In this document: positions 8,456-56,547 of the stretch, piece after piece
Layout: the number at the start of each line of letters is the position of its first letter
How positions within the stretch are numbered: the first letter of the stretch is position 1
Source: an uncultured Planctomycetia bacterium
GTDB lineage: Bacteria; Omnitrophota; Gorgyraeia; 2-01-FULL-45-10
Direction of reading: 5' to 3'
Assembly: GCA_964450115.1 (NCBI GenBank)
Contig: CAYVCD010000001.1
Span: 8,410-72,409, forward strand
Length of the DNA stretch: 64,000 bases
Made by a program: the position numbers and the translations under genes
The notes under the pieces: model-generated
Told to the model about the DNA's origin: nothing
Databases searched by the model: none
Seen by the model: the letters and a program-made list of their open reading frames with translations, nothing else

Positions 8456-8460
8456 GTCAT

Positions 8461-31949: not shown

Positions 31950-31960
31950 TGAGACGATCT

Positions 31961-32043
31961 CTCATTCCCGAATGTTTTTATCGGGAATCCAAACAAGATA
32001 AAATTCTTGTTATAGATTCCCGCTTTCGCGGGAATGACATATT
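31961..32043. repeat. REP-like palindromic doublet (ATTCCCGA-atgttttta-TCGGGAAT and ATTCCCGC-TTTC-GCGGGAAT-gaca, inverted)
   Basis: Same hairpin family as 971–1039 and 2714–2741. Lies in the gap and overlaps the GTG-31949 N-terminal extension of the next ORF. Confidence 0.55.
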
Positions 32044-32056
32044 CGATCTTTTTTTT

Positions 32057-33328: not shown

Positions 33329-34054
33329 ATGCTGTCCCAGCTTATTGCACTGCAGGTCATCACCTTTATAGCGTTGGCGCTCCTATTAAAGATGTTATTC
33401 TCCCGCCATCTTGACTCCGCCCTGAAGAGACTGAAGAAGCTCCAGAATGAGACCCTCATGCGCGAAAACCAGCTTAAAGAGGAGCTCGATAAGGCCAAGA
33501 GCGATCGTCAGGCCGAGATCGATAAGGGGAAGGCGGAGGGCAAGGCTCTGGTTGAGCAGGCAAAGAAGGAGATAGAGGCCATGAGAGGCGGCGCTGAAGA
33601 GGACGCGAAGCGCCAGGAGAAGAAGGTCTTCGCCCGTGGCCAGGAAGAGCTTGAAAAATTAAAAGTAAAACTTACGCAAGGCGTAGAGGCCGAGGCCATG
33701 CAGATCTCGATGGATCTGATAGAGCGTACCTTTACCGAAAAGGGCAAGGACCAGATGCAGAGGCAGTTCATAGATGAGCTTATAGAAGATGTCGAGAAGC
33801 TCGAAAAGAGCAAGTTCTCCGTGAAGACGAATAAAGCCAAAGTCCTGACCAGCCTTCCTCTTACGGAAAAAGAGAAGGAGCGGCTTAAGAAGACGCTATC
33901 CGCGAAAATGGGTTCTGAAGTGACGATCGCGGAAGAGAAGAAGAAGGACCTTATAATGGGGCTTATCATACAGTTGGGTGCCCTGGAGATAGACGGAAGT
34001 TTAAGCAATAAGCTACGCAAGGCCTTATCGATGATAAAAAAAGACAGGGCATAA
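33329..34054 (+). CDS. F-type ATPase b subunit fused to a delta (OSCP)-like C-terminal domain
   Basis: N-terminal TM, long charged coiled-coil (b-like), C-terminus …DLIMGLIIQLGALEIDGSLSNKLRKALSMI like the delta C-terminus. Confidence 0.55.
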   Translation: MLSQLIALQVITFIALALLLKMLFSRHLDSALKRLKKLQNETLMRENQLKEELDKAKSDRQAEIDKGKAEGKALVEQAKKEIEAMRGGAEEDAKRQEKKVFARGQEELEKLKVKLTQGVEAEAMQISMDLIERTFTEKGKDQMQRQFIDELIEDVEKLEKSKFSVKTNKAKVLTSLPLTEKEKERLKKTLSAKMGSEVTIAEEKKKDLIMGLIIQLGALEIDGSLSNKLRKALSMIKKDRA

Positions 34055-35530
34055 TGGTATCCAAAACGAATATAGCCAGCCTCGATATACGCGAAGTGGG
34101 CGTGGTTAAGGAGCTGAAGCAGGGCATCGTAAAGGTCTCCGGGCTACCCTCCTGCATATTCGGGCAGCTTGTCGAGTTCAGCCGCGGCTCTAAAGGCATG
34201 GTGATGGGCTTTAACCTCGAAGAGGTGCTTATCATAGTGCTCGGTGACGACAGTCTCATAAATATGGGCGATACCGTAACGAGCCGCTCGGAACTATTGA
34301 GCGTGCCGGTAGGAGATAATTTTGCGGGCAGAGTTGTTGACTGCCTTGCCAGGCCCATCGACGGCAGGCCCGCCATAACAGCGACCGATCATTATCCGGT
34401 ATTCCGTGAGGCGCTTGGCGTCATGGAGAGAGAGCCGATAACCGTGCCGCTTCATACCGGGACGAAGATACTAGATCTTGTTATACCTATCGGCAAGGGG
34501 CAGAGAGAGCTCATCATAGGCGACCGTCAGACCGGCAAGACGAGTATAGCTATCGATGCCATACTCAGCCAAAAGGGCAGGAATGTCGTATGTGTCTACT
34601 GTTACATAGGCGGAAGTTATTCCGCTCTTAAGAAGACGATGAATCTCCTGAACGAGAAAGGCGCGCTATCTTACACTATAATAGTATGCGCTACCGCCTC
34701 GAGCACTCCGGCCGAGCAGTATCTGGTGCCTTATACCGCGGCAAGCCTCGGCGAATATTTCATGTTCAACGGAAAAGATTCTCTTGTAGTATTCGATGAC
34801 CTTACAAAACATGCATGGGCATACAGGCAGATATCGCTTCTTATGGAGCGGCCGCCCGGCAGAGAGGCGTATCCCGGTGACATATTCTATGTGCACTCAC
34901 AGCTGATGGAACGCGCCGGCAGGCTGCGCGCAGGACTTGGAGCAGGCACTATGACATTTTTGCCGATAGTGAATACTCTGCAGGGTGATATAACCGGATA
35001 TATACAATCGAACCTCGTCTCTATGACCGATGGACAGGTCTATTTGAGCTCGAACCTATTCTTTGAAGGCTTCAAACCAGCCATAGATCTCGGGCTATCC
35101 GTTTCGCGTATCGGCAGTAAGGTCCAGTCCGGCGCAATGCGATTTGCAAGTTCGGGCCTGAGGCTGCAGTACGCGCAGTACCGCGAATTGCAAAGGCTGA
35201 CCCGGCTGAGAACGAAGCTCTCCAAGGAAGCCATGAGCGATATAAAACGCGGCGAGACTTTAAGAGAGCTTTTGATACAGGAGAACGGAAGACCGTTAAG
35301 CCTGGCCGAGGAGATAGTGCTATTCTACGCGTTCAAGAAGAAGGTGCTCGAGATATTGAAGCCGGAGCTCTTGAAGACATTTAAGAAAGAGTTCTTCTCT
35401 TTTATTTGCAATACTAATCCGACGCTAGTAGATAAGATAGAGAAGGCAGAGGAGCTGACCGATGAGATCAGGGTCTCGCTCGATAAAGCGCTGATAAACT
35501 TTTTCCAGGACAGCAAAGAGGCCAGCAAGA

Positions 35531-35547
<17 letters not shown>
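34054..35547 (+). CDS. atpA: F-type ATPase alpha subunit
   Basis: P-loop GDRQTGKTSIAIDAIL. …AYRQISLLMERPPGREAYPGDIFYVHSQLMERA…. Confidence 0.9.
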
Positions 35548-39443
<3,896 letters not shown>

Positions 39444-39500: not shown

Positions 39501-40727
39501 ATGCCAAACTATTACTATAAAGCGAAGCACGGCCTCGAAGAGACCCTTGAAGGTTCGATAGAGGCGGCAAATCAGGACGAGGCTCTGCAGAAACTGATAG
39601 CGAAAGGGCTCTTTCCGATCACTATAAAAGAGTCCTCTCTGAGCGCGAAGAAAGCAGCAAAAAAATTCCGTATGAAGATAGGCCCGGACAAGATAAAGTC
39701 AGGCGAGCTATTAACATTCATAAGGAAACTCGCCACTCTTACCAGGGCTAAGGTGGAGCTGCTATCGAGCCTCAAGATACTTTACGAACAGACTGAGAAC
39801 GAACGCTTTAAGGCGATCGTATTGGATCTTTACAATGCTACGAAGGAAGGGAAGCCTTTTTCGGAGAGCCTGGCCCGCTATCCCGACGTCTTCTCGTTCA
39901 TACTGGTGAATATAGTGAGGGCTGGAGAGGCGAGCGGACATCTCGATGCGAGCCTCGACCAGATAGCCGAGTTCATGCAGCGCGAGGAGGGCCTGAAGAA
40001 CAAGATCCTGGTAGCGCTGGCGTATCCCGGCCTTCTACTTATGGTGGGGGTCGTGAGCATATTCGTATTGATAAATTTCGTCATTCCAAAGCTTAAGCCT
40101 ATATTCGATTCACTCGGAGCTAAAGAGCTGCCGCTCATAACTAAAATAATATTGAATATAAGCGTCATTTCGCAAAAGAGCTGGTGGATATTTGCTATAG
40201 CGTTCGCAATTTTGGCGGTGATCATATATCAGCAGAAGGGTCTGCCGTATTTTAAAACAATGGCCGGAAAATTAAAGTCAAGCCTGCCCATAGTAAAGAA
40301 CCTTTCCGTGAACCAGGAACTGGCACATTTCTCGAGGAGCCTTGCGCTCCTTTTGACTAGCGGTGTGCCGGCATTGAGGAGCCTGGAGATCGTGACGCCC
40401 AGCATAGAGAATAAGGCTCTTAAGGAAGGGCTTAAGAAGGTCTGCCAGCAGGTTGCCGCTGGAAAGACCATCTCGAAGAGTATGGAAGAGTCGACGGGAC
40501 TGCCCACCTTCTTCACAAAGATGGTCGCCGTCGGTGAGGAGTCCGGCAGACTGTCCGAGGTCCTGACGGAACTGTCGAGGTCTTATACTCAGCAGATAGA
40601 ATCCGATATAGTTTTAGTCTCCTCGCTTATAGAGCCCGTTCTGATACTTACTCTAGGACTCGTGCTGGGCACGATTGTTCTATCGATACTTCTGCCAACA
40701 TTCCAGGTAACACAGATGGTGCGTTGA
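39501..40727 (+). CDS. gspF: type II secretion system platform protein GspF/PilC family
   Basis: 408 aa, two T2SSF repeats, three TM segments. Confidence 0.85.
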   Translation: MPNYYYKAKHGLEETLEGSIEAANQDEALQKLIAKGLFPITIKESSLSAKKAAKKFRMKIGPDKIKSGELLTFIRKLATLTRAKVELLSSLKILYEQTENERFKAIVLDLYNATKEGKPFSESLARYPDVFSFILVNIVRAGEASGHLDASLDQIAEFMQREEGLKNKILVALAYPGLLLMVGVVSIFVLINFVIPKLKPIFDSLGAKELPLITKIILNISVISQKSWWIFAIAFAILAVIIYQQKGLPYFKTMAGKLKSSLPIVKNLSVNQELAHFSRSLALLLTSGVPALRSLEIVTPSIENKALKEGLKKVCQQVAAGKTISKSMEESTGLPTFFTKMVAVGEESGRLSEVLTELSRSYTQQIESDIVLVSSLIEPVLILTLGLVLGTIVLSILLPTFQVTQMVR

Positions 40728-42160
40728 TCATGGCCTCCCCTGTAGGACTGGAGATCGGCGACAGGTACCTGAAGATGGCGGCATCGAAGCCATCGAAAGA
40801 ATCTCCGGGATCATTTCAACTCTTAGCCAAACCGATCCAGGGTCTTAAGGACGAGGATATATCGAAAGCAATAAAGGAGATCATCGAGAAGGCTGCCATT
40901 AAGACGGGCACAATAGTGATCTCGCTTCCCAGAAACCTCGTTACTATGCGCAATCTGCATCTGCCAAGCCGCGATCCGGAAGAGATATCCCAGATGATAG
41001 ACCTGCATATCAGCAGGATCGTCCCCTATAAAAAGGATGAGATAGCGTTCGACCATCTCTCTTTGCGTACGGACTCTCTCGGATATACGGCCGAAGTTCT
41101 CGCTATAGTGCATAAGGACGTCCTAAAGCGCTATCAGAGAATAGTGGAGAACGCAGGCCTTGATATCGACGGCATATTCTTGAGCACTTACGGCATATGG
41201 CAATGGACGGTCGATAAGTTCAAGAGCGAGATAAACAACCAGGACCTCTATCTTCTTCTCGATATCGATTCCACATACACGGACTTCATCATATTTAATA
41301 AAGATAATATACTCTTCAGTCGCACCCTGGCATTCGAATTAAAAGATGTTGTACCCAACTCTGAGACTAACAAACTGATGGGTGAAATAAAGCAGTCGCT
41401 CCTCATATTCCATAAGAATGAATCAATAAATAAGAAACCGTCGGCTATCTTTGTTTCGGGCTCATATGACGATAATATTATGAACGCCATCAAGAGGGAG
41501 TTCACCATTCCGGTGAATATGGTACCCGATCCGGCTACGCAGGCCTCCAGGATCAAAGATACGGTCCTTCCTAAAGATACCTCGATGACTGCGGTCACGG
41601 AGTTCATCGCTGATGATAAAGGTCAGAGGCTTTCATTCGCCTTGCCGGAGATGCTGATAAGAAGATCACTGAAGGAGAAGACGAGAGAACTCACAATACT
41701 CGGGACGACATTGATATATCTCTTTGCCGCGATAATGGCGTTCTTCTGGGGCAGGCAGTATAATCAGCAGTCCTATCTCAAGCGTATCGTGAACCGCAAT
41801 ACTCTGATAGAGCGCGACGTCGGGAGCCTGCTCGGCCAATATAAAAGGATGGCTTTTGTAAAAGATTTTCTATATAAGAGATCAGTGCCCATGCTCTTAA
41901 TGAATGAGCTCGGAAAGATGACGCCGCCCGAAATAGTACTGAACTATATATCTATAGAGAATAATGAAGCCGTGATCATAAGGGGACAGGGCCTTAAGTT
42001 ATCGGATGTATTTAAGTTCGTAACAACATTAGAGAATTCGAAATATTTCCAGGACGTATCAACCAAATCCACGCGCACAAAGAAAGTCAAGGAGAGGGAT
42101 ATCACGGATTTTGAGATAAATTTCGCGATCTCGCTGGGGAAAAATGATAAAAATAAATAA
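40724..42160 (+). CDS. GspL-like assembly protein (PilM-type actin-like cytoplasmic domain + TM + PilN-like periplasmic domain)
   Basis: PilM-like N-terminal ~330 aa, TM LTILGTTLIYLFAAIMAFFWG, periplasmic C-terminal domain. ATGA overlap with gspF. Confidence 0.6.
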   Translation: MIMASPVGLEIGDRYLKMAASKPSKESPGSFQLLAKPIQGLKDEDISKAIKEIIEKAAIKTGTIVISLPRNLVTMRNLHLPSRDPEEISQMIDLHISRIVPYKKDEIAFDHLSLRTDSLGYTAEVLAIVHKDVLKRYQRIVENAGLDIDGIFLSTYGIWQWTVDKFKSEINNQDLYLLLDIDSTYTDFIIFNKDNILFSRTLAFELKDVVPNSETNKLMGEIKQSLLIFHKNESINKKPSAIFVSGSYDDNIMNAIKREFTIPVNMVPDPATQASRIKDTVLPKDTSMTAVTEFIADDKGQRLSFALPEMLIRRSLKEKTRELTILGTTLIYLFAAIMAFFWGRQYNQQSYLKRIVNRNTLIERDVGSLLGQYKRMAFVKDFLYKRSVPMLLMNELGKMTPPEIVLNYISIENNEAVIIRGQGLKLSDVFKFVTTLENSKYFQDVSTKSTRTKKVKERDITDFEINFAISLGKNDKNK

Positions 42161-43092: not shown

Positions 43093-43645
43093 ACGCTCTA
43101 AAAAGGCCTTCACGCTGGTGGAAGTGATCCTCGCCATAACTATATTTTCATTCATAGCCGTCGGCATATCCACTAGCTTCTTCTCCGGGATAAAACTTTG
43201 GGGCCGCGCCATAAGCACAGATTCCTGGCGTAATGACATATTGCTCGGCTTTGAATCGATAGCCGCTGCTTTAAGACAGACGGTCGACATACCTGATATA
43301 GGATATTCCGGGGACGAAAAATCCATATCGTTTCTTACCATCTCCGGAAATAATATTATAAGGGAATCGTACTCTTTTGACGCACAGAAGAAAGCCCTCA
43401 CAAAAAGCAAGACTAAATTGAAGGATATATCGGAGAACGACAAAGGCGGACAAGCGGCCGGCATACCCTTTCTCTCTTTAGATGAATTTTCGATACGGTA
43501 CCTTTACAGGGACCATTTGAAAAATACCTCCCAGTGGAGGGACGAATGGAAGAAGGAAGACGGCATATTTGCCGCCGTACAGTTTACAGCCAAAACACAC
43601 AATGAAGAATTCAACAAGACGGTATTCATACCTATCGCCGAATAG
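43082..43645 (+). CDS. minor pseudopilin (prepilin-type N-terminus), GspJ-like
   Basis: Leader MKSKRSKKA|FTLVEVILAITIFSF with F+1 and E+5. Confidence 0.6.
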   Translation: MKSKRSKKAFTLVEVILAITIFSFIAVGISTSFFSGIKLWGRAISTDSWRNDILLGFESIAAALRQTVDIPDIGYSGDEKSISFLTISGNNIIRESYSFDAQKKALTKSKTKLKDISENDKGGQAAGIPFLSLDEFSIRYLYRDHLKNTSQWRDEWKKEDGIFAAVQFTAKTHNEEFNKTVFIPIAE

Positions 43646-44459
43646 AGGGAGCATCCTCATAGTCACTATGTGGGTGCTGATATGTTTCTCTATTCTTAGC
43701 ATCGGATTATACAGGGTCGTCTCTTCGCGCATAAAGGTCACCCAGGTGATGACTAACAGGATCACAGGGCAGTACCTGGCCAAGGCGGCGTGCGCCTATT
43801 TTAAGGCGATAAAAAAAAGTGACGCGACGCCATCTGACACATTGGCCGAACTTAACACGGCCCAGGAGCGGGAAATGGGCAACGGAAAATTTAAATATAT
43901 CCTTAGGGACGAGAAGAGCAAAATAAATATGAATAGAGCATCCATAGAGATGATCTCCCGCCTCCCGGACTTCAGCAAAGATACGGCAACTGATATAGTT
44001 GTATCAAAGTTAAAACCGTTTAAGGCCATAGAGCAGCTGTTGCTTATTGACGGCGTGAATGAGGCTATGCTCGATAAATGCAGGGGCCTCATAACCGTAT
44101 ATGGCGACGGGAGCGTAAATATCAATACAGCATCTGCTGAGGCTTTTAAAGTGCTCGGGCTTGATGAAGGCCTTGTGGATATCATAATCGCCTTTCGAAG
44201 AGGATCCGATGGCAAAGAAGGCACTGCCGATGACGTGGCTTTTGATAATAAGTCCGGGATCATAGAGTACCTGCGCTCCAAGACCTCTTTATATGAGGAG
44301 CAGGAGGCGAAATTGCTTCAGTTGACGAGCCAGGATATGCTTTCCACGAGCTCGGACACTTTTACGCTGGATATAGAAACAACAGTTCTCGAAAAGCCCG
44401 CGATGCGGTATAATATTGTAATGGAGAAGGATAAGATCAAGCGCTGGACCGAGATATAG
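43602..44459 (+). CDS. GspK-like minor pseudopilin
   Basis: Hydrophobic N-terminus RGSILIVTMWVLICFSILSIGL and …VNINTASAEAFKVLGLDEGL… as in GspK. The start is uncertain; 43569 is the alternative. Confidence 0.55.
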   Translation: MKNSTRRYSYLSPNRGSILIVTMWVLICFSILSIGLYRVVSSRIKVTQVMTNRITGQYLAKAACAYFKAIKKSDATPSDTLAELNTAQEREMGNGKFKYILRDEKSKINMNRASIEMISRLPDFSKDTATDIVVSKLKPFKAIEQLLLIDGVNEAMLDKCRGLITVYGDGSVNINTASAEAFKVLGLDEGLVDIIIAFRRGSDGKEGTADDVAFDNKSGIIEYLRSKTSLYEEQEAKLLQLTSQDMLSTSSDTFTLDIETTVLEKPAMRYNIVMEKDKIKRWTEI

Positions 44460-44483: not shown

Positions 44484-44906
44484 ATGATCAAAAGAATAAT
44501 TCACAGAAAAGGTTTCACTCTCATAGAGCTGATGCTTGTGGTTATCATCATAGGCATACTCGTCGCCATGATAGTGCCCAGGATGGCTGGCAGGTCTGAG
44601 CAGGCGCGCGTAGCCGTCTCCCAGGCCGACGTAGACCTGAATATAGCCACGGCGCTTAAACTTTATGAGCTCGACAACGGATCATTTCCCACGACCGATG
44701 AGGGGCTAAACGCATTATTGTCTGCTCCATCTACGGCAAAGCGCTGGAAAGGCCCGTATCTCGATAAGGCTCCGGTAGATCCATGGAGTAACCCGTATAA
44801 ATACAGATCGCCCGGCACTCACCGTACTGATTATGATCTCTACTCTCTCGGCAAGGACGGCACCGAAAGCTCCGATGACGTCACCAACTGGCAACAACAG
44901 CAGTAA
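44484..44906 (+). CDS. gspG: type II secretion major pseudopilin GspG
   Basis: HRKG|FTLIELMLVVIIIGILVAMIVP. LKLYELDNGSFPTTDEGLNALL. KGPYLDKAPVDPWSNPYKYRSPG…DLYSLGKDG. Near-colinear with PulG/GspG. Confidence 0.85.
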   Translation: MIKRIIHRKGFTLIELMLVVIIIGILVAMIVPRMAGRSEQARVAVSQADVDLNIATALKLYELDNGSFPTTDEGLNALLSAPSTAKRWKGPYLDKAPVDPWSNPYKYRSPGTHRTDYDLYSLGKDGTESSDDVTNWQQQQ

Positions 44907-46362: not shown

Positions 46363-46390
46363 TTGACATCAGGCTGTTTTAATGTATAAT
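46363..46390 (+). promoter_or_regulatory. strong sigma70-type promoter (TTGACA –16– TATAAT)
   Basis: Consensus hexamers at 46363–46368 and 46385–46390, 42 nt upstream of GTG 46432. ATAGGAG RBS. Confidence 0.5.
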
Positions 46391-46431
46391 CTATATACAT
46401 TTAAGAAAACAGAAAGATAGGAGAAACTCAA

Positions 46432-49400
46432 GTGAATTCAGACGTGAGCACTTGTGTTGCGACAAACACATCTATTATTAAGAATAAGCCATTTAGGGTA
46501 ATGGTCATCGCCATTACTTTGATGGCTTTTTTTGTCAATATATTTGCCTACGAACTGGCTTCCGCAGCGCCTGTCATAACAGCTCAGGCATTTAAGAGCC
46601 TAAGTCCCGATACATTCTCCTTGCCCAAAGACCTTGGCGATATAAAGGATTCCTGGGCCCCCTCAAAACAGAGTCTAAAGAATACCATTATCCACATCCA
46701 GGATGCCCATTGTAATTACGCCGCTCAAGCCAAGATAGCCCAGATCGTTGGGTATCTGAATTCAAGCTATGGCATCGATACGATCAATCTTGAAGGCGGA
46801 GCGGGGGATTACGACCTTTCCGCGTTTTCGGCTATTCAAGAGAAGGATAAGCGCGACAAGGCTGCCGACCATTTCGTTAAAGAAGGCCTAGTCAACGGCT
46901 CGGAGCTATTTGCGATAAATAACCCGGATAAAGTAAAGCTGTGGGGCATAGAGGACACTAAACTTTATGTTGAGAACCTATCAGTCTACAGGAACTCCCT
47001 CAAGAATAAGGACCGGATCGATAAGGTTCTTAAGTCTATCAGTTATATGTTGACCAACCTCAAAATGCATATCTACTCAAAAGAGCTTCTTGAGTTTGAT
47101 ACAAAATACGTCCAATACAAGGCGGGCTCTCTCGACTTCAAAGAGTATCTGATATATATAATAGGTAAGGCAAAAGAGAAAGCGGTGGGCTTGGACCAGT
47201 TCAAAGATATATCGCTCTTGAAACAGACCTTCGTTGAGGAGAAGAATATTGACTTCAAGAAGGCGAACGTTCAAAGAGATCAGCTTATAGACAAACTGCA
47301 GAAAGAGCTCTCTAAAGATGAGGTAAGCGAGCTGGTCTCTAGGGCTCTTGAATTCAGGTCCGATAAGCTATCGGAAGGAGATTTTTATAAGTATCTTGCT
47401 AAAAAGTCAAAGACGGTAGAAATAGACCTGGGTGCCTTCCCGGAGCTAAAAAAATATATCGCATACACCGCAACATATGCCGCCATAGATAAAGTAAGGA
47501 TAATGGAAGAGGTAGAGAATCTTGAGAATAGATTAAAGGAAATCTTGTGTGGCAGCGAGAAGGAGAGGGACCTGATACTTCTATCCAAGAACCTTATCCT
47601 CACAAAGAACATATTCAATATCTCAATTACGCCGGACGATCATAAGTACTATAAAAAGAATGTGGATGAATTCAGTACCGATAAATATGTTACTTTTATA
47701 AAGAGAGAAGCTTTGCTATATAAGATCACCACAAAGCTTGACGAAAATATAAGCTCTCTCGATGATGACCGCGAGGAGATGGCCAGTTTCTATGAATGTT
47801 CGTTCAAACGCGATGCCGCATTTATCAAGAACATAAAATGCAACAAGGCGGCTATAGTTGTAACCGGAGGGTTCCATACTGAAAATCTAAAGGCCCTATT
47901 TAAAAAGAATAATATTGCCTATGTTTCCATTATGCCTAATTTCAAAAACCGCAACGGTTACGAATCGCCGTACTACAAGCTGTTATCAGGCGAAAATAGC
48001 CTTGATGTAAAAGACGCGCTGCCATCGGTCATAAATAAAACATTAGCAATTGCATCACCGCAAAATAGAGCTATTACTGATGAGATTGCCGCAGCAGGCC
48101 TATCAGCCGGTATATCCGAAAGAATACCCGAAGAAAAAATCGCGCCTAAGAATATGATGAAGATCGCTTTCTGGAAGACTTTATTGGCTGTGGCGCTTGG
48201 CTGGAGCGCAGCGTATCTGGCCGGCCAGGTGGTCGTTATGGATCTCCAAATTAAGGCGGTGATTTCAGGGGTAGCAACCGGATTTTTAACCTGGGTCTTT
48301 CATTCGCACCATAGGTCAAACCGCAATGACCGAAAAGTTATAGGGCTCTCGGTAGGCGCGGCTGTTGTTGCGGAAACCCTGACAGCCGGGTTGATTTACG
48401 TCTCATTGTTATCTCTGTATATATTACGGATTGCGCACGTTGCGATCAACAAGGCGATATATAATTATGTCCAGGAGATACAGCGTGGAAGGAACGTCTC
48501 CTGCGGCACGATATGCGAGGCGGGACACCAGGAGCTGCTTGATGTCCAATTAAGATTGTATTATCAGGGATTGATCAATGGCGTGGCCGGAAAAGATTCT
48601 GTCAGCGAAGATATATTAAGCGAGAAGGCGGCGCTGAACGCGCTGAAACTTTCCGACAAACTGATAGACTACGGAACTTCAAAAGAACAATTGGAGGAGA
48701 TCGTAGAGTATATACACAAAAAAAGCGGCATACCCGATGACGTATCTATTTTATTCGCGATCCCTCCCGATGGAAACAATCTCTGGTATATCGATAACCC
48801 GGACAGGCCCGGAGAAAGGCTCTACGCCGGTGGCCACTTCAATCAAAAAGCAACACGTATTCATATTTCCTTGCCATTAATATTATCTCAAGAATACCCG
48901 CAAGAGGCTGCCTATGCCATAGCCATGCACGAATATCAGCACATACAGGTAATAAGAGACGAGCTCCGGGAAGAAATTAGCCACGATCCGGCGGAAGATG
49001 AAGGAATGAGGATCGTAACTGCCGCCGCCATAAAGGAGCTGGGGTATGGTGGATTAATAACTATGGGCCTTGATGAATTGTTCATAAATAATATGATTCG
49101 CTCGGGCTCGTTTAATAGAGAGATGGCTTACATATCGATGCAAGGCGCCCTGACGTCATTATTTTCAGACTATGATAAAGCGGGAGAATTTGTGGATATA
49201 ATGAAAGAATTTGAGAGGCTGGGGATATTTGATCCTTCAAATGAAGTCGACCTTGAGAATATGGCCGCAGCCGCTATAGGCTTATTAAAAACCGGCATAA
49301 TGGCGGTCTACATCCGCGGAGGCAAAACGTATTATCTGGTTCGGGTAAAAACGGATGAGTATGCGGCGAATTTCGATCTCGACAGGCAAGTAGGAAGGTG

Positions 49401-50799
49401 GGGCGGAAAACCTGTGTTTTTGAATGAGAGTGCAGGTGGCGAGGGAGATGGCCTGAGAGAACTCACCGGAGTCGATGAGGATGAGGGCGATGACAGGGCA
49501 GTCCCCGTAGAAATAACCGGCAGCGGGCAGATCAGGACAATACGTAACCCTGCGAATGGAGATATTATACCTATTGATGAAAGGCGGGTAATGCTTTTAT
49601 CGGATGATGGAGAAATGGATTACAGAATAGAGATAAATGAAAGAGACCGTATATTTGCGCTTAACAACCCAAAAAACAGGTACGTGATCGCCAAGGTTGC
49701 CGGAAGGCCTGGGGATCCTCTGTATCTACATTCCGTAACGGAAAACGGTATTACGGAAGAGGTATCTTATCAGCCTTATAACGGTAGGTTCTTATTTTGG
49801 GTATGTGAAATTTCACCGGGGACCTACAAGGTCCTTCCATACAAGCAGGTCTCAGAAGATGTAACCGCGCCTAAGCCCATATTGGCGTGGGTAACTTATA
49901 AAGACGGCGTGGTGGGCGATGTGACGAGGATAGACCGCCAGCCGCCGGACGGAGGCAGGGATTATACGCAGTGGGTCGCTGAATTCAGGGATGCAACAGA
50001 ACCGATAACAGCGCAGTCTCTTGTGCTGCGCACCGAGGGCAGCGGCACGCGCGATCTCGATATCGCCAATATCAGAAGAGCCATGCAAGAAGTCGGCGAG
50101 AAGAGGACCGATATTCTGGATGTTCTAAAAGAATTTAACCGGTTGATTGATATGAAAAAGAATGGGGAGCTATTAGGGGCGCTTTTGAAGTTCCTGACCG
50201 CGGTGAGGGCGCCACAGGAGCCGAGGGTATTCTTCATACCGCGCGATGAAAGTAATAAGGCTATATATGACGGCACAAAGAGCGATATAAAATATGCACT
50301 CGAGAAAGAAGGATTTAAGAATATAGGGATCGTCTTTTACGATGGCACACAAAAAGACCTCGACAATGCTTATGGCAGACAGCTTGCTAATTATAAGTCC
50401 GTGTTAAATATGCCCGGAGCGCTCGCGCTGGCGTATGTCGATTCCGGTATGGTTGATGAAGCCACATTTAATAAGCACAACGAAGATAACGCGTCCTACA
50501 AATGGATGCGTGAAAATATTCCCCAAGGTGTTTCAGCTAATGAACTATTCATGCATGTAGCATTCGGTCTGCCGGTCCTTGACTTCGCGAAAAATTCTAC
50601 AGACGCAGACCATAAACAGAAGCTTCTCGATATAATAGAGAGGATGGTAGACAGCGACTCCGTAAATATTGATCTGCTGAAATCGGATCCGAATAGCATA
50701 TTCACTTTCGCATTTATATTGGTACTACAGAAGCTCGATATAGATAAAGATATGCGCGAAAGAGAGCTTTCGCTCAAAGAGATATTGACTGCCGCATAA
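46432..50799 (+). CDS. large (1455 aa) membrane protein of unknown family; N-terminal ~500-aa domain paralogous to 51046 product; internal HExxH
   Basis: N-terminal TM. Conserved motifs IIHIQDAHCNYAAQ and VVTGGFHTENL shared with the paralogue. Cluster of TM helices around aa 580–670. HEYQH motif. Confidence 0.6.
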   Translation: MNSDVSTCVATNTSIIKNKPFRVMVIAITLMAFFVNIFAYELASAAPVITAQAFKSLSPDTFSLPKDLGDIKDSWAPSKQSLKNTIIHIQDAHCNYAAQAKIAQIVGYLNSSYGIDTINLEGGAGDYDLSAFSAIQEKDKRDKAADHFVKEGLVNGSELFAINNPDKVKLWGIEDTKLYVENLSVYRNSLKNKDRIDKVLKSISYMLTNLKMHIYSKELLEFDTKYVQYKAGSLDFKEYLIYIIGKAKEKAVGLDQFKDISLLKQTFVEEKNIDFKKANVQRDQLIDKLQKELSKDEVSELVSRALEFRSDKLSEGDFYKYLAKKSKTVEIDLGAFPELKKYIAYTATYAAIDKVRIMEEVENLENRLKEILCGSEKERDLILLSKNLILTKNIFNISITPDDHKYYKKNVDEFSTDKYVTFIKREALLYKITTKLDENISSLDDDREEMASFYECSFKRDAAFIKNIKCNKAAIVVTGGFHTENLKALFKKNNIAYVSIMPNFKNRNGYESPYYKLLSGENSLDVKDALPSVINKTLAIASPQNRAITDEIAAAGLSAGISERIPEEKIAPKNMMKIAFWKTLLAVALGWSAAYLAGQVVVMDLQIKAVISGVATGFLTWVFHSHHRSNRNDRKVIGLSVGAAVVAETLTAGLIYVSLLSLYILRIAHVAINKAIYNYVQEIQRGRNVSCGTICEAGHQELLDVQLRLYYQGLINGVAGKDSVSEDILSEKAALNALKLSDKLIDYGTSKEQLEEIVEYIHKKSGIPDDVSILFAIPPDGNNLWYIDNPDRPGERLYAGGHFNQKATRIHISLPLILSQEYPQEAAYAIAMHEYQHIQVIRDELREEISHDPAEDEGMRIVTAAAIKELGYGGLITMGLDELFINNMIRSGSFNREMAYISMQGALTSLFSDYDKAGEFVDIMKEFERLGIFDPSNEVDLENMAAAAIGLLKTGIMAVYIRGGKTYYLVRVKTDEYAANFDLDRQVGRWGGKPVFLNESAGGEGDGLRELTGVDEDEGDDRAVPVEITGSGQIRTIRNPANGDIIPIDERRVMLLSDDGEMDYRIEINERDRIFALNNPKNRYVIAKVAGRPGDPLYLHSVTENGITEEVSYQPYNGRFLFWVCEISPGTYKVLPYKQVSEDVTAPKPILAWVTYKDGVVGDVTRIDRQPPDGGRDYTQWVAEFRDATEPITAQSLVLRTEGSGTRDLDIANIRRAMQEVGEKRTDILDVLKEFNRLIDMKKNGELLGALLKFLTAVRAPQEPRVFFIPRDESNKAIYDGTKSDIKYALEKEGFKNIGIVFYDGTQKDLDNAYGRQLANYKSVLNMPGALALAYVDSGMVDEATFNKHNEDNASYKWMRENIPQGVSANELFMHVAFGLPVLDFAKNSTDADHKQKLLDIIERMVDSDSVNIDLLKSDPNSIFTFAFILVLQKLDIDKDMRERELSLKEILTAA

Positions 50800-50855
50800 G
50801 ATTTGACCGGATCGTCGGAACGCCCTTTAAGGGTCTCACGTCCCCTTAAATAAGA

Positions 50856-50876
50856 GCCGGCGGTCCGGTTTTTTAA
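50856..50876 (+). terminator. possible intrinsic terminator (GCCGG-cggt-CCGG + T6)
   Basis: Short GC stem followed by a T-tract, 57 nt after the 50799 stop. Confidence 0.3.
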
Positions 50877-51045
50877 TAAAATTATCCATATTTAGGCTCA
50901 ATTGTTAGCATATAAAAAAGCAAGCTTCCCTATGAGCTAATCCTATGGTATACTATATAGTGAAGAGAAAGGTGTTTTTTTTCGGGCCACTTTGTAAGAA
51001 ATTTTAAAAAGTGGTGTAATTCAACCAGATAGAAGGATGTGTTAG

Positions 51046-53889
51046 ATGTTTGACGCTAGATCTAATACGCCAAGATCCGGTTTTGTAAGGCCTACAAAGG
51101 TAAAAGAAGGCTTCTTTACCTTGAGGCCTTTTTTTATTGTTTCGCTGGCTCTACTCTTTTCATTCAATGCATTAGGAGGTGACTTGTTAGTTGGTGAACT
51201 TTGGGCTGCCAGGGAGTCTTCGGGGCTTACTAGCGTCGGCCTTGACAGCACGGGCAGCCCATCACCTCTTAAAATCTTGAGCGCGGCCAACTTCACCCTG
51301 CCTCAGGAGCTTGGATACATTCAGGAATCTACCGAAGTCCCGAACTCCGGCAGGACCGTAATACATATCCAGGATGCCCATTGTAATTATGCCGCTCAGA
51401 AGTCAATTGCGGAAATATTGAACTATCTTACTACCGAATATGGCATCAATACCGTTAACTGCGAAGGCGCTGCCGAAGGTTATGACCTATCTCCGTTTAC
51501 CGATATACCCGAAAAAGAGGTGAGAGAGAAGACTGCCGACTTTTTCGTGAAGGAAGGAGTCGTGAGCGCGGCTGAATATTACGCTGTGAATAATCCCAAG
51601 AAGGTGAGCCTGTGGGGAGTGGAAGATCCGAATCTCTATCTGAAGAATCTGAAAGTATACAGGGACTCACTGGCACACAAAGATGAGGTAGATCTGTACA
51701 TCAAGTCTGTAAGATATATCCTCGACAACCTTAAGCGGCACATATATTCGGATGAATTGCAGGAGTTCGACAGGCAGTACACCGGATACAAAGAAGGCAA
51801 AATACCTTTTAAAGAGTATATGCTCTATCTTACCGCCGCGGCACGCAAGAGGATGATCGATATAAAATCTTTTCCCAACATATACCTCTTAAGCCAGACG
51901 CTCTCCGAAGAGGATAAGATAAATTTTAAGCACGCCAACAACGAGAAGGATGAGGTCGTCGATAAACTTAAGAAGTCCCTGTCGAGGAACGAAATGGAAG
52001 AGCTTATGACGATGGTCGCCAAGCTAAAGACTGAACGGATCTCTCAGGCCGATTTTTACGCCTATCTTGCAAAGAAGGCAAGATCGGTAAAGCTGGAGCT
52101 GAAAGATTATCCGGAACTTCATAATTACATCATATACATCTCAATATACGGAGCCATAGACAGGACAAAGATCACAAAAGAGATGGATGAACTAGAGAAC
52201 AAGATAAGCGAATCTCTGTACGAGAACGATACGCAGAGAGAGCTCGGTATATTATCCAAGAATCTCACGCTCACTAAGAATATATTCAACATATCTCTGA
52301 CCAGGGATGATTTTACGTACTATATGGAACATAGGTCCACATTCGCAGTGGCGAATTATGTCAAATTTATCGACGCCAACGCGCCTCTTTACAAAATAAG
52401 CGCTATTCTTAGTAAGAATATCGACAGGTTAGACCAATATCGGGATAATATGGACCAATTCTACGAGACTTCGCTCGAAAGGGATAAAGCGTTCATAAAG
52501 AATATTAAATTCACGGATCACGACAGGCCGAACTCTATAATAATCACTGGAGGTTTCCATACGGAGAACCTGCGCGAGCTTTTCAAGAATGAGAATGTAT
52601 CCTATATCTCGATAATGCCCAAGTTCAAGAATGAGAAAGATTATGTAAGCCCGTATATGAAGCGCCTAGCCGGCCAAAGGACGGCGATCGAGAACGTGAT
52701 CGATACGGCCATACCGGCTATCCTGAACCTGCAGGTCGCCGAGATATTGGCAGCGAGGCTTGCCGATTCGTTTTACGGTAAAATAACGGTAGAGTTCTTT
52801 AAACGCATATTGGTGCCGATGGTTGCCGCTCTCATAAGAGGCCAGAGTTTCATACTGCGAGTGGGTAGGGGCATTCGGGTCAAAGGCTCTGACAGGGACG
52901 ATCAGGAAAAATTCGTCATCTTCCCCAGGGGGCCGGGTCCGGATATCTTAGGAGACCCTGTAGTCAAGGCATCGCTAGAACCGAACCAGCAAGCGAACGC
53001 GGTCCTCACGAGGACAGCCTCAGGTGAGCTTGAATTTGGACCGGTCACCGGACAGCCTCAGGAAAAGGTTACCGAAACTATGCCTGAAGAAGAAGCAGTC
53101 GTGGAAGCACCGGCTGTGCCGGTAGGCGTGACACCTGCGTTGACGGACGAAGAGAGATTTGCGCAGGATGTTATACGGCCTCTTTCAGGCGACGTAAGAA
53201 AAGGAGTTTTGAACATCTATCTTATTAAGACCACGCCTCAGACAATAGCGGGCATGGCAGCCTCGGCCAGTGGAGCCAGGAACGTATTTGAGAAGAAGCT
53301 CGGACTAGACACGGTCATACTGTACTATACGGATGCTAAGGGGCAGAGGGCTCAGTTAAAGCGGCTGACTCAACTATTTTCGCAGAGGGAAAACAAGGAA
53401 AGATATCCCATGGCATTTGCAAATTGTATGGATACACAGGAGCTCAAGGCGGTGCGGGCCTTTATCAGCAGGAATCGTTCACTTAAAGATATGATAGCCA
53501 TAGGCAGGGACTTCGGCAAAGGAAGGAATCGAATCCCCGAACAGGTCAAGGTCATGTTCGTTGGCAGCACTATAATGAACGATAGAAGGTTGAGTAAGAC
53601 TTTTAATATGAGCGCCGCATCTCTATTCGAGAGCAGGAAGAATATGTTACAGGCTTTCGAAAAGTACGGCATTATCAGCATCAGCGATATAAACAAGGTC
53701 CTGTCAGCTAAAGGGAAGATGATAGAGATTTCCACCATAGATAGTCTCACAGTAGAACATGCTGACTTACTGGCAGATATAATGGATAATATCTGGAAGG
53801 GTGCCTTGTTATTGAATTGCTCGAAAGTAGACTGGAAGACATTCGATGAGTGGAAGAAGTCCCAGGAACAACTCCTGCGATCCGTCTAA
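51046..53889 (+). CDS. large (947 aa) membrane/secreted protein, paralogue of the 46432 product over the N-terminal ~500 aa
   Basis: Shares VIHIQDAHCNYAAQ…NIFNISLT…IIITGGFHTENL with the 46432 product. Hydrophobic N-terminus. Confidence 0.6.
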   Translation: MFDARSNTPRSGFVRPTKVKEGFFTLRPFFIVSLALLFSFNALGGDLLVGELWAARESSGLTSVGLDSTGSPSPLKILSAANFTLPQELGYIQESTEVPNSGRTVIHIQDAHCNYAAQKSIAEILNYLTTEYGINTVNCEGAAEGYDLSPFTDIPEKEVREKTADFFVKEGVVSAAEYYAVNNPKKVSLWGVEDPNLYLKNLKVYRDSLAHKDEVDLYIKSVRYILDNLKRHIYSDELQEFDRQYTGYKEGKIPFKEYMLYLTAAARKRMIDIKSFPNIYLLSQTLSEEDKINFKHANNEKDEVVDKLKKSLSRNEMEELMTMVAKLKTERISQADFYAYLAKKARSVKLELKDYPELHNYIIYISIYGAIDRTKITKEMDELENKISESLYENDTQRELGILSKNLTLTKNIFNISLTRDDFTYYMEHRSTFAVANYVKFIDANAPLYKISAILSKNIDRLDQYRDNMDQFYETSLERDKAFIKNIKFTDHDRPNSIIITGGFHTENLRELFKNENVSYISIMPKFKNEKDYVSPYMKRLAGQRTAIENVIDTAIPAILNLQVAEILAARLADSFYGKITVEFFKRILVPMVAALIRGQSFILRVGRGIRVKGSDRDDQEKFVIFPRGPGPDILGDPVVKASLEPNQQANAVLTRTASGELEFGPVTGQPQEKVTETMPEEEAVVEAPAVPVGVTPALTDEERFAQDVIRPLSGDVRKGVLNIYLIKTTPQTIAGMAASASGARNVFEKKLGLDTVILYYTDAKGQRAQLKRLTQLFSQRENKERYPMAFANCMDTQELKAVRAFISRNRSLKDMIAIGRDFGKGRNRIPEQVKVMFVGSTIMNDRRLSKTFNMSAASLFESRKNMLQAFEKYGIISISDINKVLSAKGKMIEISTIDSLTVEHADLLADIMDNIWKGALLLNCSKVDWKTFDEWKKSQEQLLRSV

Positions 53890-54373: not shown

Positions 54374-55255
54374 ATGGCTAAGAGAAAGATAATAAAGATA
54401 GATGAAGATAAGTGCAACGGCTGCAAGCTGTGTATTCCGAATTGTCCTGAAGGAGCTCTGCAGGTAATAGACGGTAAGGCGCGGCTGATCAGTGATCTAT
54501 TCTGTGATGGCCTTGGCGCATGTATAGGCCATTGCCCTCAAGGCGCTATCAATATAGAGGAAAGAGAAGCCGAAAAGTACGATGAGAAGAAGGTTATGGT
54601 TAATATAGTGAAGCATGGCAAGAATACCATAATCGCGCATATAAAACACTTAAGGGAGCACAACGAGTTTGGTTATCTCAAAGAGGCCATGGACTATCTT
54701 GTTACCAAAGGTATAAAGATAAGGCCAGGTGATCTCACAGATACAGTTGCTTCGGGCCCATGCGGTTGTCCGGGTTCAAAGGTCAGCCAACAAAAAAATG
54801 CCGGTCTTGCTCCCGAAAAGCGCCTGCCCGACTGCACGCTAACTCCATCGAGGCAGGCGGGCCTGACCCCTTCGAAGACCCCTTCACGGCTTACAACATG
54901 GCCGGTGCAGTTAAAGCTGGTGCCGGCCTTCGCGCCGTTCCTAAATGGCGCGGATCTCCTGATAGCGGCGGACTGTGTGCCATTCGCGTATGCCGACTTC
55001 CACGAGGACCTCTTAAAAGGAAAGATACTGCTCGTAGGGTGTCCGAAGCTGGATGACATCGCGTATCATAAGGAGAAGATAACTCAAATCATAATGAATA
55101 ATGATATTAAGTCCATAACACACGCTCATATGGAGGTGCCGTGTTGTTTTGGTTTTCTATCTATAATAAAGGACGCGATCGCGCAATCAGGGAAGAAGAT
55201 CCCTTTCAGCGATGTTACTATCAGCATAACCGGAGAAAGAATAAAGGAGGTTTAA
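54374..55255 (+). CDS. 4Fe-4S dicluster ferredoxin-domain protein with a Cys-rich C-terminal domain (putative electron-transfer partner of Hcp)
   Basis: Two CxxCxxCxxxCP motifs (CNGCKLCIPNCP, CDGLGACIGHCP). Additional Cys pairs (CGCPG, CC). Immediately 5' of hcp. Confidence 0.65.
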   Translation: MAKRKIIKIDEDKCNGCKLCIPNCPEGALQVIDGKARLISDLFCDGLGACIGHCPQGAINIEEREAEKYDEKKVMVNIVKHGKNTIIAHIKHLREHNEFGYLKEAMDYLVTKGIKIRPGDLTDTVASGPCGCPGSKVSQQKNAGLAPEKRLPDCTLTPSRQAGLTPSKTPSRLTTWPVQLKLVPAFAPFLNGADLLIAADCVPFAYADFHEDLLKGKILLVGCPKLDDIAYHKEKITQIIMNNDIKSITHAHMEVPCCFGFLSIIKDAIAQSGKKIPFSDVTISITGERIKEV

Positions 55256-55257
55256 AT

Positions 55258-56547
55258 ATGTTCTGTTATCAATGCGAACAGGCGGCAGGTGGTACGGGAT
55301 GCACGAAAGTCGGGGTTTGCGGTAAGAATGAGGATATACAGAGTCTTCAGGATACGCTTTTATACGGATTAAAAGGGATAGCCGCCTATGCATATCATGC
55401 CAGAGAGCTTGGCGCCCGCAATGAAGATGTCGACGCGTTTATGCACGAAGCGCTATTCAAAACAGTGACGAATGTGAGCTTTGACCTTAATCAGCATATT
55501 GCGATGGTGCTGAAGTGCGGCCAGATGAACCTTAAAGTAATGGAGCTTCTCGATAAAGCGCATACTGATAAATTTGGCAAGCCAACTCCTGTCGAGGTCG
55601 ATACCGGTACGAGAGCAGGCCCCGGCATACTTGTTACGGGCCACGATCTTCTTATGCTCCATAGGCTTCTTGAACAGACAGAGGGGTTCGGCGTAAATAT
55701 ATATACCCACGGTGAGATGCTCCCTGCGCATGGTTATCCGGGGTTAAGAAAATTCAAGCACCTTGCCGGTAACTATGGCGGCGCGTGGCAGGACCAGAAG
55801 AAGGAGTTTGCGGCCTTTTCGGGCCCAATATTGGTGAACACGAACTGCGTAATAATACCCCCGCCAAATTCATATCTTGATCGGCTATTTACCGTCGGCC
55901 TGCCCGGAGTGCCGGGCGCCAAGCATATAGAAGGCCATGATTTTGCAGAAGTGATAAAGATGGCAAAGAAGCTTCCCGCCCTTCCGGCGGCTTCGGGCAA
56001 GAAGATATTGACGGGATTTCACTATACCGCCATACTCGGGCTTGCCGAAAAAATAGTGGGTCTGGTAAAATCCGGTAAGATCAAGAGGTTCTTCCTGATC
56101 GGAGGATGCGACGGAGCGAAGCCAGGGAGGAATTATTACACCGAATTTGCCGAGAGCGTCCCCAAGGACTGCGTGATACTCACCGTAGCCTGCGGCAAAT
56201 ACCGTTTCAATAAGCTCGATTTCGGTAATATCGATGGAGTACCGAGGCTCATAGATCTGGGACAGTGTAATGACGCTTATTCAGGAGTCCAGGTGGCCCT
56301 GGCGCTCGCCAAGGTCTTCAATTGCGGCGTAAACGATCTGCCGCTTTCGTTCGTCCTTTCGTGGTTTGAGCAGAAAGCGGTGGCGATCCTCTTAACCCTG
56401 TTATCTCTGGGGATCAAAGGCATCAGGATAGGCCCTACACCTCCGGCCTTCATAACGCCGAATGTATTTAAGGTATTGCAGGAGAATTTTGACCTTAAAT
56501 TGATCAAGACTCCGGAAGAGGACTTGAAGGAGATACTGAAGAAGTAA
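55258..56547 (+). CDS. hcp: hybrid cluster protein (hydroxylamine reductase), short class
   Basis: Begins MFCYQCEQAAGGTGCTKVGVCGK, the Hcp N-terminal Cys motif. 430 aa. The longer ORF from 55141 is an upstream extension into the previous gene. Confidence 0.85.
   Translation: MFCYQCEQAAGGTGCTKVGVCGKNEDIQSLQDTLLYGLKGIAAYAYHARELGARNEDVDAFMHEALFKTVTNVSFDLNQHIAMVLKCGQMNLKVMELLDKAHTDKFGKPTPVEVDTGTRAGPGILVTGHDLLMLHRLLEQTEGFGVNIYTHGEMLPAHGYPGLRKFKHLAGNYGGAWQDQKKEFAAFSGPILVNTNCVIIPPPNSYLDRLFTVGLPGVPGAKHIEGHDFAEVIKMAKKLPALPAASGKKILTGFHYTAILGLAEKIVGLVKSGKIKRFFLIGGCDGAKPGRNYYTEFAESVPKDCVILTVACGKYRFNKLDFGNIDGVPRLIDLGQCNDAYSGVQVALALAKVFNCGVNDLPLSFVLSWFEQKAVAILLTLLSLGIKGIRIGPTPPAFITPNVFKVLQENFDLKLIKTPEEDLKEILKK

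Follow-up and report, generated by a model that had tools for sequence, protein, structure and literature searches.

What kind of protein is encoded by two adjacent large genes that share an N-terminal region and match no named family, and what might their shared parts do? The question arises from a 64,000-nucleotide (nt) stretch of DNA (hereafter the window, to which gene and feature coordinates refer unless another contig is named) from an uncultured Planctomycetia bacterium that GTDB assigns to the Omnitrophota (GenBank assembly GCA_964450115.1, contig CAYVCD010000001.1, positions 8,410 to 72,409). In the list of open reading frames (ORFs), gene A (46432..50799, + strand) has a GTG start and encodes 1455 amino acids (aa), arranged as a putative signal peptide or anchor, a head domain, a transmembrane (TM) bundle, a variable middle and a C-terminal domain; gene B (51046..53889, + strand) has an ATG start and encodes 947 aa, arranged as a putative signal peptide, head, linker and C-terminal domain. 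The two proteins are paralogous over the head domain. As the best explanation of the whole we consider it probable, with real room for the alternatives weighed below, that A and B are small, paralogous members of an essentially Omnitrophota-specific protein family of very great size with a fixed "bookend" layout, in which the head is a TIKI-type hydrolase and both ends may act on behalf of their own protein.

A sequence-only reading of the locus had proposed a paralogous pair of unknown family with a common N-terminal region of ~500 aa at ~50% identity. BLASTP bears out the pairing (E 2e-157 over 563 columns; A 50-603, B 71-604) and returned no further significant segment between the two; the identity had been judged in the right direction but slightly too high, at 45% measured, with 65% positives. 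The two motifs picked out by eye are likewise present in both proteins, HIQDAHCNY at A 88-96 and B 107-115 and TGGFHTENL at A 478-486 and B 501-509, but the ~420 aa thought to separate them measure 389 (A) and 393 (B) from His to His. The description as an unknown family also stands, neither protein having a significant match in Pfam, NCBIfam, PADLOC or PHROGs, 13 family members scanned singly behaving likewise, and named relatives all called "hypothetical". A DUF1722 match in two of the 13 falls within the helical insert described below, scores barely over the cut-off and was taken as chance. The exact protein A is found in public assemblies and the exact protein B on four public contigs, in both cases without a name.

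How large the family is emerges from searches for relatives. With B as query, 117 proteins were found, conserved over their first ~550-600 residues and variable beyond, and the named ones come almost all from Candidatus Omnitrophota/Omnitrophica metagenome-assembled genomes (MAGs). Scanning one genome per GTDB species for HIQDAHCN gave 327 confirmed loci, the best 80 of which come without exception from MAGs of Omnitrophota or from others deposited under the name "uncultured Planctomycetia"; in several genomes there is more than one locus. Against 1.84 billion representative proteins, the head profile matched 9,597 at E ≤ 1e-3 (6,549 at E ≤ 1e-30) and, as each representative stands for a cluster at 50% identity, the family comprises at least 9,597 clusters. 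Among the best 150 of these matches the domain always begins within the first ~70 residues of proteins 568-7,683 aa long. The succession of a signal-peptide-like start, head domain, variable middle and C-terminal domain, with a conserved set of residues in the head, recurs across thousands of clusters. Most scanned head-domain proteins are Pfam-dark, including proteins of 4,029 and 4,952 aa, and a few relatives carry methyltransferase, GNAT, CPBP, GH65 or alpha-amylase domains. Because A and B belong to this phylum-wide family, the finding is larger than first reported, the earlier reading having overlooked how large the family is, the common C-terminal domain, the signal peptide, the terminator that separates the genes and the swapping of the middle. 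No publication describing the head domain or the tail was found in the literature searched.

The C-terminal domain joins A and B independently of the head. An iterated hidden Markov model (HMM) built from the C-terminus of B reaches A 1262-1454 (E 8.5e-24) and one built from A reaches B 713-944 (E 2.9e-44), both E-values referring to a database of only 149 sequences. In A the domain covers residues 1262-1455 (50215..50796, + strand; iterated and tail HMMs) and closes with a terminal helix, ...LQKLDIDKDMRERELSLKEILTAA; in B it covers residues 713-947 (53182..53886, + strand; both HMMs and AlphaFold), ending ...CSKVDWKTFDEWKKSQEQLLRSV. AlphaFold models this region of B as beta-alpha repeats, with a predicted local distance difference test score (pLDDT) of ~80-88. 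The helix at the extreme C-terminus is amphipathic, and 73 of 120 first-round sequences, most of the others being annotated as partial, keep the final ~45 residues, with the consensus ...IL.AIF.G..L+I+P(V/I)(D/N)W+S(I)DEW+KAQ.AVLQS(V/L/A)-COOH. When run on all six-frame ORFs of the window, the tail HMM found only B (E 2.4e-21) and A (E 1.2e-5); it matches the extreme end of 72 of 119 new large representatives, independent of their length, and in 80 independent GTDB genome loci it is positive in 23 of the 31 head-domain ORFs whose stop codon lies inside the locus. The C-terminal domain of A is moreover 44-51% identical to the C-termini of three relatives (P0046, P0047 and the 5935-aa P0202). 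Since it has few strongly conserved polar residues, we read this ~200-aa domain as a structural or recognition module.

The opposite end of the proteins carries a putative export signal. Residues 1-47 of A (46432..46572, + strand) form a basic stretch and a hydrophobic helix (KPFRVMVIAITLMAFFVNIF) that a hydrophobicity scan marks as a probable Sec signal peptide or anchor, and residues 1-56 of B (51046..51213, + strand) form an extended putative signal peptide (MFDARSNT..., a basic stretch, a hydrophobic helix, ...LWAA) whose elements recur in the family. Among 223 family sequences with at least 60 residues ahead of the head motif, 204 have a strongly hydrophobic 17-mer before the head, the median net charge preceding it being +3, and a further 140 of the surveyed sequences have an [AS][WY][AS] motif, typically ...AWA; a start of the form M-x-D-A-R-S-N is common across the family. 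The N-terminus thus resembles a Sec signal peptide whose n-region is extended and conserved and, because of this resemblance, the head domain should lie outside the cytoplasmic membrane.

What, then, is the head domain itself? It occupies residues 50-545 of A (46579..48066, + strand; HMM E 6e-223) and 71-560 of B (51256..52725, + strand; delimited by invariant columns, the AlphaFold model and fold matches). Two AlphaFold models of B, one full-length (mean pLDDT 75.9) and one of the head domain alone (pLDDT 90.8, predicted template modeling score 0.81), agree on a small parallel sheet (strands 103-109, 136-139, 188-192, 496-501 and 518-525) with flanking helices, split by an all-helical insert of ~290 residues (B 195-486). 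A Foldseek search of the PDB with full-length B was cluttered by coiled-coil and generic alpha/beta matches and was therefore rerun with the domain-only model. In this rerun Bcr135 took ranks 1-3 (3b55, E 0.01, probability 0.82; 2rad_A, E 0.031; 2rad_B, E 0.064), EreC rank 4 (6xcs, E 0.14), HopBA1 rank 15 (5t09, E 0.55) and ChaN rank 20 (2g5g, E 0.89), so that TIKI-superfamily structures make up six of the top 20 matches, including the first four, and the remainder are coiled coils and generic helical bundles. The published superfamily includes 3B55 (Bcr135), 5T09 (HopBA1) and 2G5G (ChaN), shares a core of a parallel beta-sheet amid helices, and has a catalytic set of two His and two Glu residues plus a conserved Arg (PMC6254334).

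This catalytic pattern has a counterpart in A and B. The catalytic residues are E3900-x-H3902, E3930 (+28), R4001 and H4030 in RRSP and H85 and E113 (+28) in Bcr135 (PMC6254334), and the published set in EreC is E47, H50, E78 (+28), R261 and H289; the candidate residues are D110-x-H112, E140 (+28), R479 and H505 (within G502-G503-F-H505) in B, and D91-x-H93, E121 (+28), R460 and H482 in A. Both proteins therefore show an acid-x-His, a Glu at +28, an Arg and a G-x-x-H, with Asp rather than Glu as the first acid. The candidate residues are placed at the C-terminal ends of strands and, in the alignments, are invariant or nearly so across the family, as are H107, C113, N114, Y115 and Q118 (B numbering). 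Similarly, Q[DE]xH and GGxH motifs 390-440 aa apart are found in essentially all 117 first-round homologues. Together, the model and the alignments indicate that the head is likely a new family of the TIKI/Ere/ChaN fold, very far diverged but with its catalytic set intact.

Several results weigh against the explanation that we favor. No Foldseek match reached E ≤ 0.001, the best being the Bcr135 match given above, and template modeling scores are ~0.2, with root-mean-square deviations >20 Å over long alignments. Profile searches of PDB sequences returned nothing relevant, with neither Bcr135 nor EreC found, and in HMMER no TIKI-family Pfam model matches the head domain: PF01963 (TraB/PrgY/GumN) gave no match even at E ≤ 10 and PF05139 (erythromycin esterase) gave none, the likeness to Ere being confined to the level of fold and motif. 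Comparison by hhalign with E. coli YbaP relatives, tried with the whole domain, the core minus the insert and the two halves separately, was non-significant throughout (probability 0.8-6.8%), a weak negative given a low-diversity template (≥65% identity); in the non-significant core alignment the RDxAF...GGFH segment falls on the RNLAW...GALH of YbaP. Beyond the fold, the terminal helix of B has a pLDDT <50 and AlphaFold docked it nowhere, three relatives (P0113-P0115) have the N-terminal domain without the tail, so that the two ends are not obligatorily coupled, and some relatives carry cytoplasmic-cofactor domains (methyltransferase, GNAT), a poor fit with full export. The faint resemblance to the Tiki/TraB/GumN/ChaN superfamily that the sequence-only reading had suspected is thus partly supported, because the family keeps the TIKI catalytic set invariant: structure prediction and profile comparison, the checks it had suggested, put TIKI structures first and found the conserved residues, but with sub-threshold E-values and a negative comparison with TraB.

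The weak fold scores (all Foldseek E ≥ 0.01) and the negative hhalign result also favor a decidedly unlikely alternative, that the TIKI likeness is coincidental and the head a new fold or a member of another superfamily, such as a degenerate D-x-H metallophosphoesterase-like hydrolase, whose motifs have converged; a "SDLHAN" read in the sequence of a distant relative (P0117) resembles metallophosphoesterase motif I. Calcineurin-like metallophosphoesterases are built on a two-sheet beta-sandwich and have D-x-H, G-D, G-N-H-[DE], H and G-H-x-H motifs. The head has one small parallel sheet, and on this difference in fold the calcineurin-like reading of D-x-H was rejected; it also lacks the GD and GNHE motifs, and no metallophosphoesterase structure is present in the listed top 50 Foldseek matches. 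Coincidence also sits poorly with the TIKI structures holding the first four ranks above generic matches, and with an order and spacing of residues that agree with those of TIKI enzymes.

With the head taken as a divergent TIKI-type domain, it would be, with moderate confidence, an active extracytoplasmic hydrolase of ester or peptide bonds in which the His-Glu pair activates water, possibly with a metal, although some TIKI enzymes are metal-independent. Water activation for cleavage is the mechanism proposed for Ere and TIKI enzymes (PMC6254334 for TIKI). The same residues can be read another way, and we regard it as unlikely, though worth weighing, that the head has a TIKI/ChaN-like fold but is no enzyme, serving instead as a ligand- or metal-binding, docking or secretion-recognition module whose polar residues bind a cofactor or partner, comparable to haem-binding ChaN or the inactive C1/C2 domain of PMT. 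ChaN (2g5g) is indeed among the fold matches, PMT has the fold without the catalytic motif (PMC6254334), the invariant Cys113 adjoins His112 and with the nearly invariant H107 looks like a metal or ligand site, and a constant head on every cargo suits a targeting role. Unlike in PMT, however, the full acid/His/Glu/Arg/His set is invariant, and the +28 spacing is that of proven enzymes, which speaks for the hydrolase.

Between the constant ends lies the part of the proteins that changes. In A, a TM bundle of three or four hydrophobic helices (residues ~575-675; 48154..48456, + strand; Kyte-Doolittle windows ≥1.6 at 584-603 and 636-672) is followed by a variable middle, or "payload" (residues ~700-1150; 48529..49881, + strand). 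Hydrophobic segments follow the head in about half of the family, as in A, and are lacking in the other half, as in B. The closest MAG is L007, which encodes P0119 and P0008. Against P0119, its closest relative, A shows ~90% identity in residues 51-700, 85-100% in 1150-1455 and only 30-55%, with insertions and deletions, over 700-1150; at the DNA level there is no match to L007 across 48945-49427. B and its syntenic orthologue P0013 are 80-90% identical up to ~residue 600 and 15-25% beyond, with the same pattern against P0014 and P0021. Across 148 proteins, the identities of head and C-terminal domain are weakly correlated (rho 0.27), which gives no support to co-adaptation of head and tail. 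By these contrasts in identity and the weak head/tail correlation, the middle is swapped between close relatives, and ends and middle assort as modules.

The larger paralogue had been credited with a TM bundle and an HExxH, and both are there, as hydrophobic segments at A ~578-672 and as HEYQH at residues 833-837 (48928-48942, + strand). A zincin reading of this motif was rejected: the closest relative, P0119, alone keeps it, as HEYRH, HEIIA, HELVA or HEVGE is found in more distant ones, and A has no peptidase Pfam match. Separately, some relatives have an intramembrane-protease-like module soon after the head, in a position analogous to the TM bundle of A: Peptidase_M50 in P0121 (761-837), HEIGH in P0112 and CPBP in P0106.

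The genomic neighborhood adds further context. Upstream of A lie ATP synthase genes, type II secretion system (T2SS)/type IV pilus-like genes (E, F, PilM/N and pseudopilins) and a TrpB-like gene, and downstream of B come genes encoding an Rrf2 regulator, a 4Fe-4S protein and a protein of hybrid-cluster-like type. In a related genome (L004), the B orthologue P0013 sits between a phosphotransferase system (PTS) EIIA gene and an Rrf2 gene, directly following the OmpA/LysM and PTS EIIA genes that occupy 7514-8949 of the window. The ~42-kb block at 8949-51046, which holds an IS200-like transposase gene, a gene for 4,250 aa, the ATP synthase, T2SS/pilus and TrpB-like genes and gene A, is missing there. 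Beyond the B-Rrf2 synteny we found no conserved neighborhood around relatives.

A hypervariable middle next to secretion genes invites comparison with polymorphic toxin systems, in which a variable C-terminal toxin domain is followed by a cognate immunity gene. An effector or toxin-like system of this kind, with the N-terminal part serving delivery, perhaps via the adjacent T2SS/type IV pilus-like genes, and the swapped C-terminal part acting as effector on a host or prey, would draw on the sharp drop in identity after ~residue 600 between same-locus orthologues, on the hypervariable middle of A, on the T2SS E/F, PilM/N and pseudopilin genes directly upstream, and on a literature that regards Omnitrophota as host-dependent or predatory. 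We consider it highly unlikely, however: B is followed here and in L004 by the Rrf2 regulator gene and no immunity-like small gene, the extreme C-terminus is conserved rather than variable, the T2SS neighborhood is not kept in L004, L005 and L006, and no toxin or defence model matches.

Collectively, the alignments and models make it most likely that A and B are exported and built of modules: a hydrolase head of the His/Glu type, a payload that varies and a C-terminal module common to the family. Such a protein would begin with an extended Sec-type signal peptide or anchor, continue with a head domain of ~500 aa of a divergent TIKI/erythromycin-esterase/ChaN/TraB fold and a freely exchangeable middle (in A the TM bundle and ~450 variable residues, in B a short linker), and end with the conserved ~200-aa alpha/beta domain and its amphipathic terminal helix. 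A weaker reading, prompted by the constancy of both ends beside a changing cargo, is that head and tail serve their own protein in some cargo-independent task, such as its maturation, release, targeting or assembly, rather than acting on an outside substrate.

The transcription signals around the two genes are consistent with much of what had been read from the letters. A has the proposed consensus promoter-like site, TTGACA-16 nt-TATAAT at 46363..46390 (+ strand), which agrees with the consensus at 12 of 12 positions and is identified by that match alone, and AGGAG stands 7 nt 5' of its GTG start. Directly 3' of A's stop codon, a long hairpin followed by U6 resembles an intrinsic terminator (50805..50873, + strand); its minimum free energy is -34.9 kcal/mol (z -4.33), none of 200 shuffled sequences folds equally well, and a simple terminator scan did not pick it up. 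The promoter-like region suggested for B is represented by an extended -10-like element, TGGTATACT, read from the sequence at 50946..50954 (+ strand). Two hairpins are predicted in B's leader (50961..51015, + strand), the second being CCACUUUG...AAAGUGG; this is the proposed leader hairpin, found at ~50986-51015, although the leader fold is modest (z -2.53). A search of Rfam with the A-B intergenic region, including the leader, gave no match. Since the terminator-like hairpin and then the extended -10-like element stand between them, the two genes seem to be transcribed as separate units. Over its full length the intergenic region is 99% identical to that of L007, and it lies in an island of 98-100% DNA identity (50227-51426) that spans the C-terminal domain of A, the intergenic region and the first ~125 codons of B. 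The flanks of this island are 80-95% identical to L007 in the head domains, and below 70% or without a match in the middles. The island suggests either recent recombination or unusually strong constraint at the A-B junction.

Other features of the window are described here for completeness. The 4,250-aa ORF (18383-31135, + strand) is preceded by the IS200-like transposase gene (17374-18372) and has weak Kelch-repeat and DUF2341 matches, mostly below Pfam cut-offs; as a candidate member of the family it was rejected, the HMMs finding neither head nor tail. A Peptidase_MA_2 protein (31949-32851) is encoded ~0.8 kb 3' of it, with one ORF between. The F-type ATP synthase subunit genes (33329-37776, + strand) are immediately followed by the T2SS/type IV pilus-like genes (to 44906, + strand), comprising GspE/PilB (37773-39443), GspF (39501-40727), a PilM/PilN fusion (40724-42160), an HHH_3 protein (43569-44459) and a pseudopilin-like protein (44484-44906). 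Beyond B, the 4Fe-4S ORF (54374-55255) and the longest hybrid-cluster-like ORF (55141-56547) overlap by ~115 nt, and the hybrid-cluster-like gene probably starts at a later start codon.

Arrangements of head and tail also vary among relatives. Tandem head-domain genes occur at three of the 80 GTDB loci, and three further loci have a tail-bearing, 5'-truncated ORF upstream. Just 3' of head-domain ORFs, complete ORFs with the family tail and no head lie on L018 (3007-7806; Candidatus Omnitrophus magneticus, where the head ORF is P0049) and on L031 (4331-7036), which reflect either frameshifts or a true separation of head from tail. As a general account, split head and tail genes were rejected, the neighbors of the head-only P0114 having no tail and the L018 and L031 cases being possible frameshifts. 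P0114 itself, a 618-aa protein ~28% identical to B, is encoded on L006 between two very long genes, one for 3,083 aa with SIS and PGM domains and the other for 1,860 aa with GHMP kinase and PfkB domains; a gene for a 2,117-aa beta-lactamase/beta-CASP protein lies just beyond the 3,083-aa gene.

How the family relates to known systems can be judged at the level of fold, motif and layout. Erythromycin esterases (EreA/B/C, Bcr135/Bcr136) provide the best fold matches and, like the head, have an alpha/beta part and a second lobe, an acid near the His, the Glu at +28, the Arg and a second His after a beta-strand. They differ in having no detectable sequence similarity to the head, with its ~290-aa helical insert, and in the first acid, a Glu at -3 as opposed to the Asp at -2 here; moreover, Ere entries in the PDB are ~400 aa without appended domains, whereas the domain here comes after a putative signal peptide, at the front of proteins of 0.6-7.7 thousand aa (kaa). 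The TIKI-fold endopeptidase RRSP (DUF5), which MARTX toxins carry as an effector domain, shows its E-x-H, Glu(+28), Arg and His in the order and spacing seen in the head. MARTX toxins have conserved ends around exchangeable central modules. RRSP is itself one of the exchangeable cargo modules, whereas the TIKI-like domain here is the constant head, and no MARTX-type features were found (RTX repeats, a cysteine protease domain or type I secretion genes). For TraB/PrgY/GumN (PF01963), the YbaP pattern R-[ND]-x-A-[FW]...G-x-x-H aligns by eye with RDKAF...GGFH, but TraB proteins, at ~260-400 aa, are without the large helical insert. In PrgY and Tiki the TIKI domain is extracytoplasmic and held by TM helices, an arrangement like that proposed for A. 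Families of cargo proteins with a C-terminal sorting domain (type IX) also combine an N-terminal signal peptide, variable cargo and a conserved extreme C-terminus. Unlike in these, the C-terminal domain here is modeled as alpha/beta with a terminal helix and each cargo has its own head. The type IX sorting domain is a beta-sandwich, and no type IX genes were seen.

Closest in setting are the giant proteins of the Omnitrophota, ultra-small and apparently host-dependent bacteria with exceptionally long, mostly unannotated proteins. Two preprints on these giants (including "Archaeovorins") describe proteins that mostly carry signal peptides, TM helices or both, that have modular enzyme cargo and that are in large part Pfam-dark, and N-terminal regions of giant genes generally have no identifiable domains (West-Roberts et al.). 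Proteins with the head domain are from the same phylum and reach 7,683 aa, and those of 4,029 and 4,952 aa have no Pfam match; for the published giants of at least 10 kaa the likeness is one of description, the head having been seen here in proteins of up to 7,683 aa. A wider proposal, which we put forward as doubtful, is that head and C-terminal domain form a so far unrecognised, phylum-wide handling system for large and giant envelope proteins of the Omnitrophota. Each cargo, from <1 to >7 kaa, would then bring its own TIKI-like hydrolase and C-terminal recognition module, and these ends might have a part in maturing, releasing, anchoring or chaining the protein at the cell surface, for instance through docking of head on tail or through self-processing, and might also be the fixed frames for exchange of cargo cassettes.

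What is new here is likely a TIKI-like family in a fixed architecture, phylum-wide and unannotated, of which A and B are compact members. The head, with ~9,600 clusters and the signature of a hydrolase superfamily, and the C-terminal module provide a common handle for these Omnitrophota proteins, one that gives a family definition, a set of point mutants and a question to ask, namely what the head cuts and what the tail binds. At 1455 and 947 aa, A and B are of a size that can be expressed and studied, which their multi-thousand-residue relatives are not. Should head and tail prove to be independent modules that are only loosely related, they would still be a useful new pair of domain families for the annotation of these proteins.

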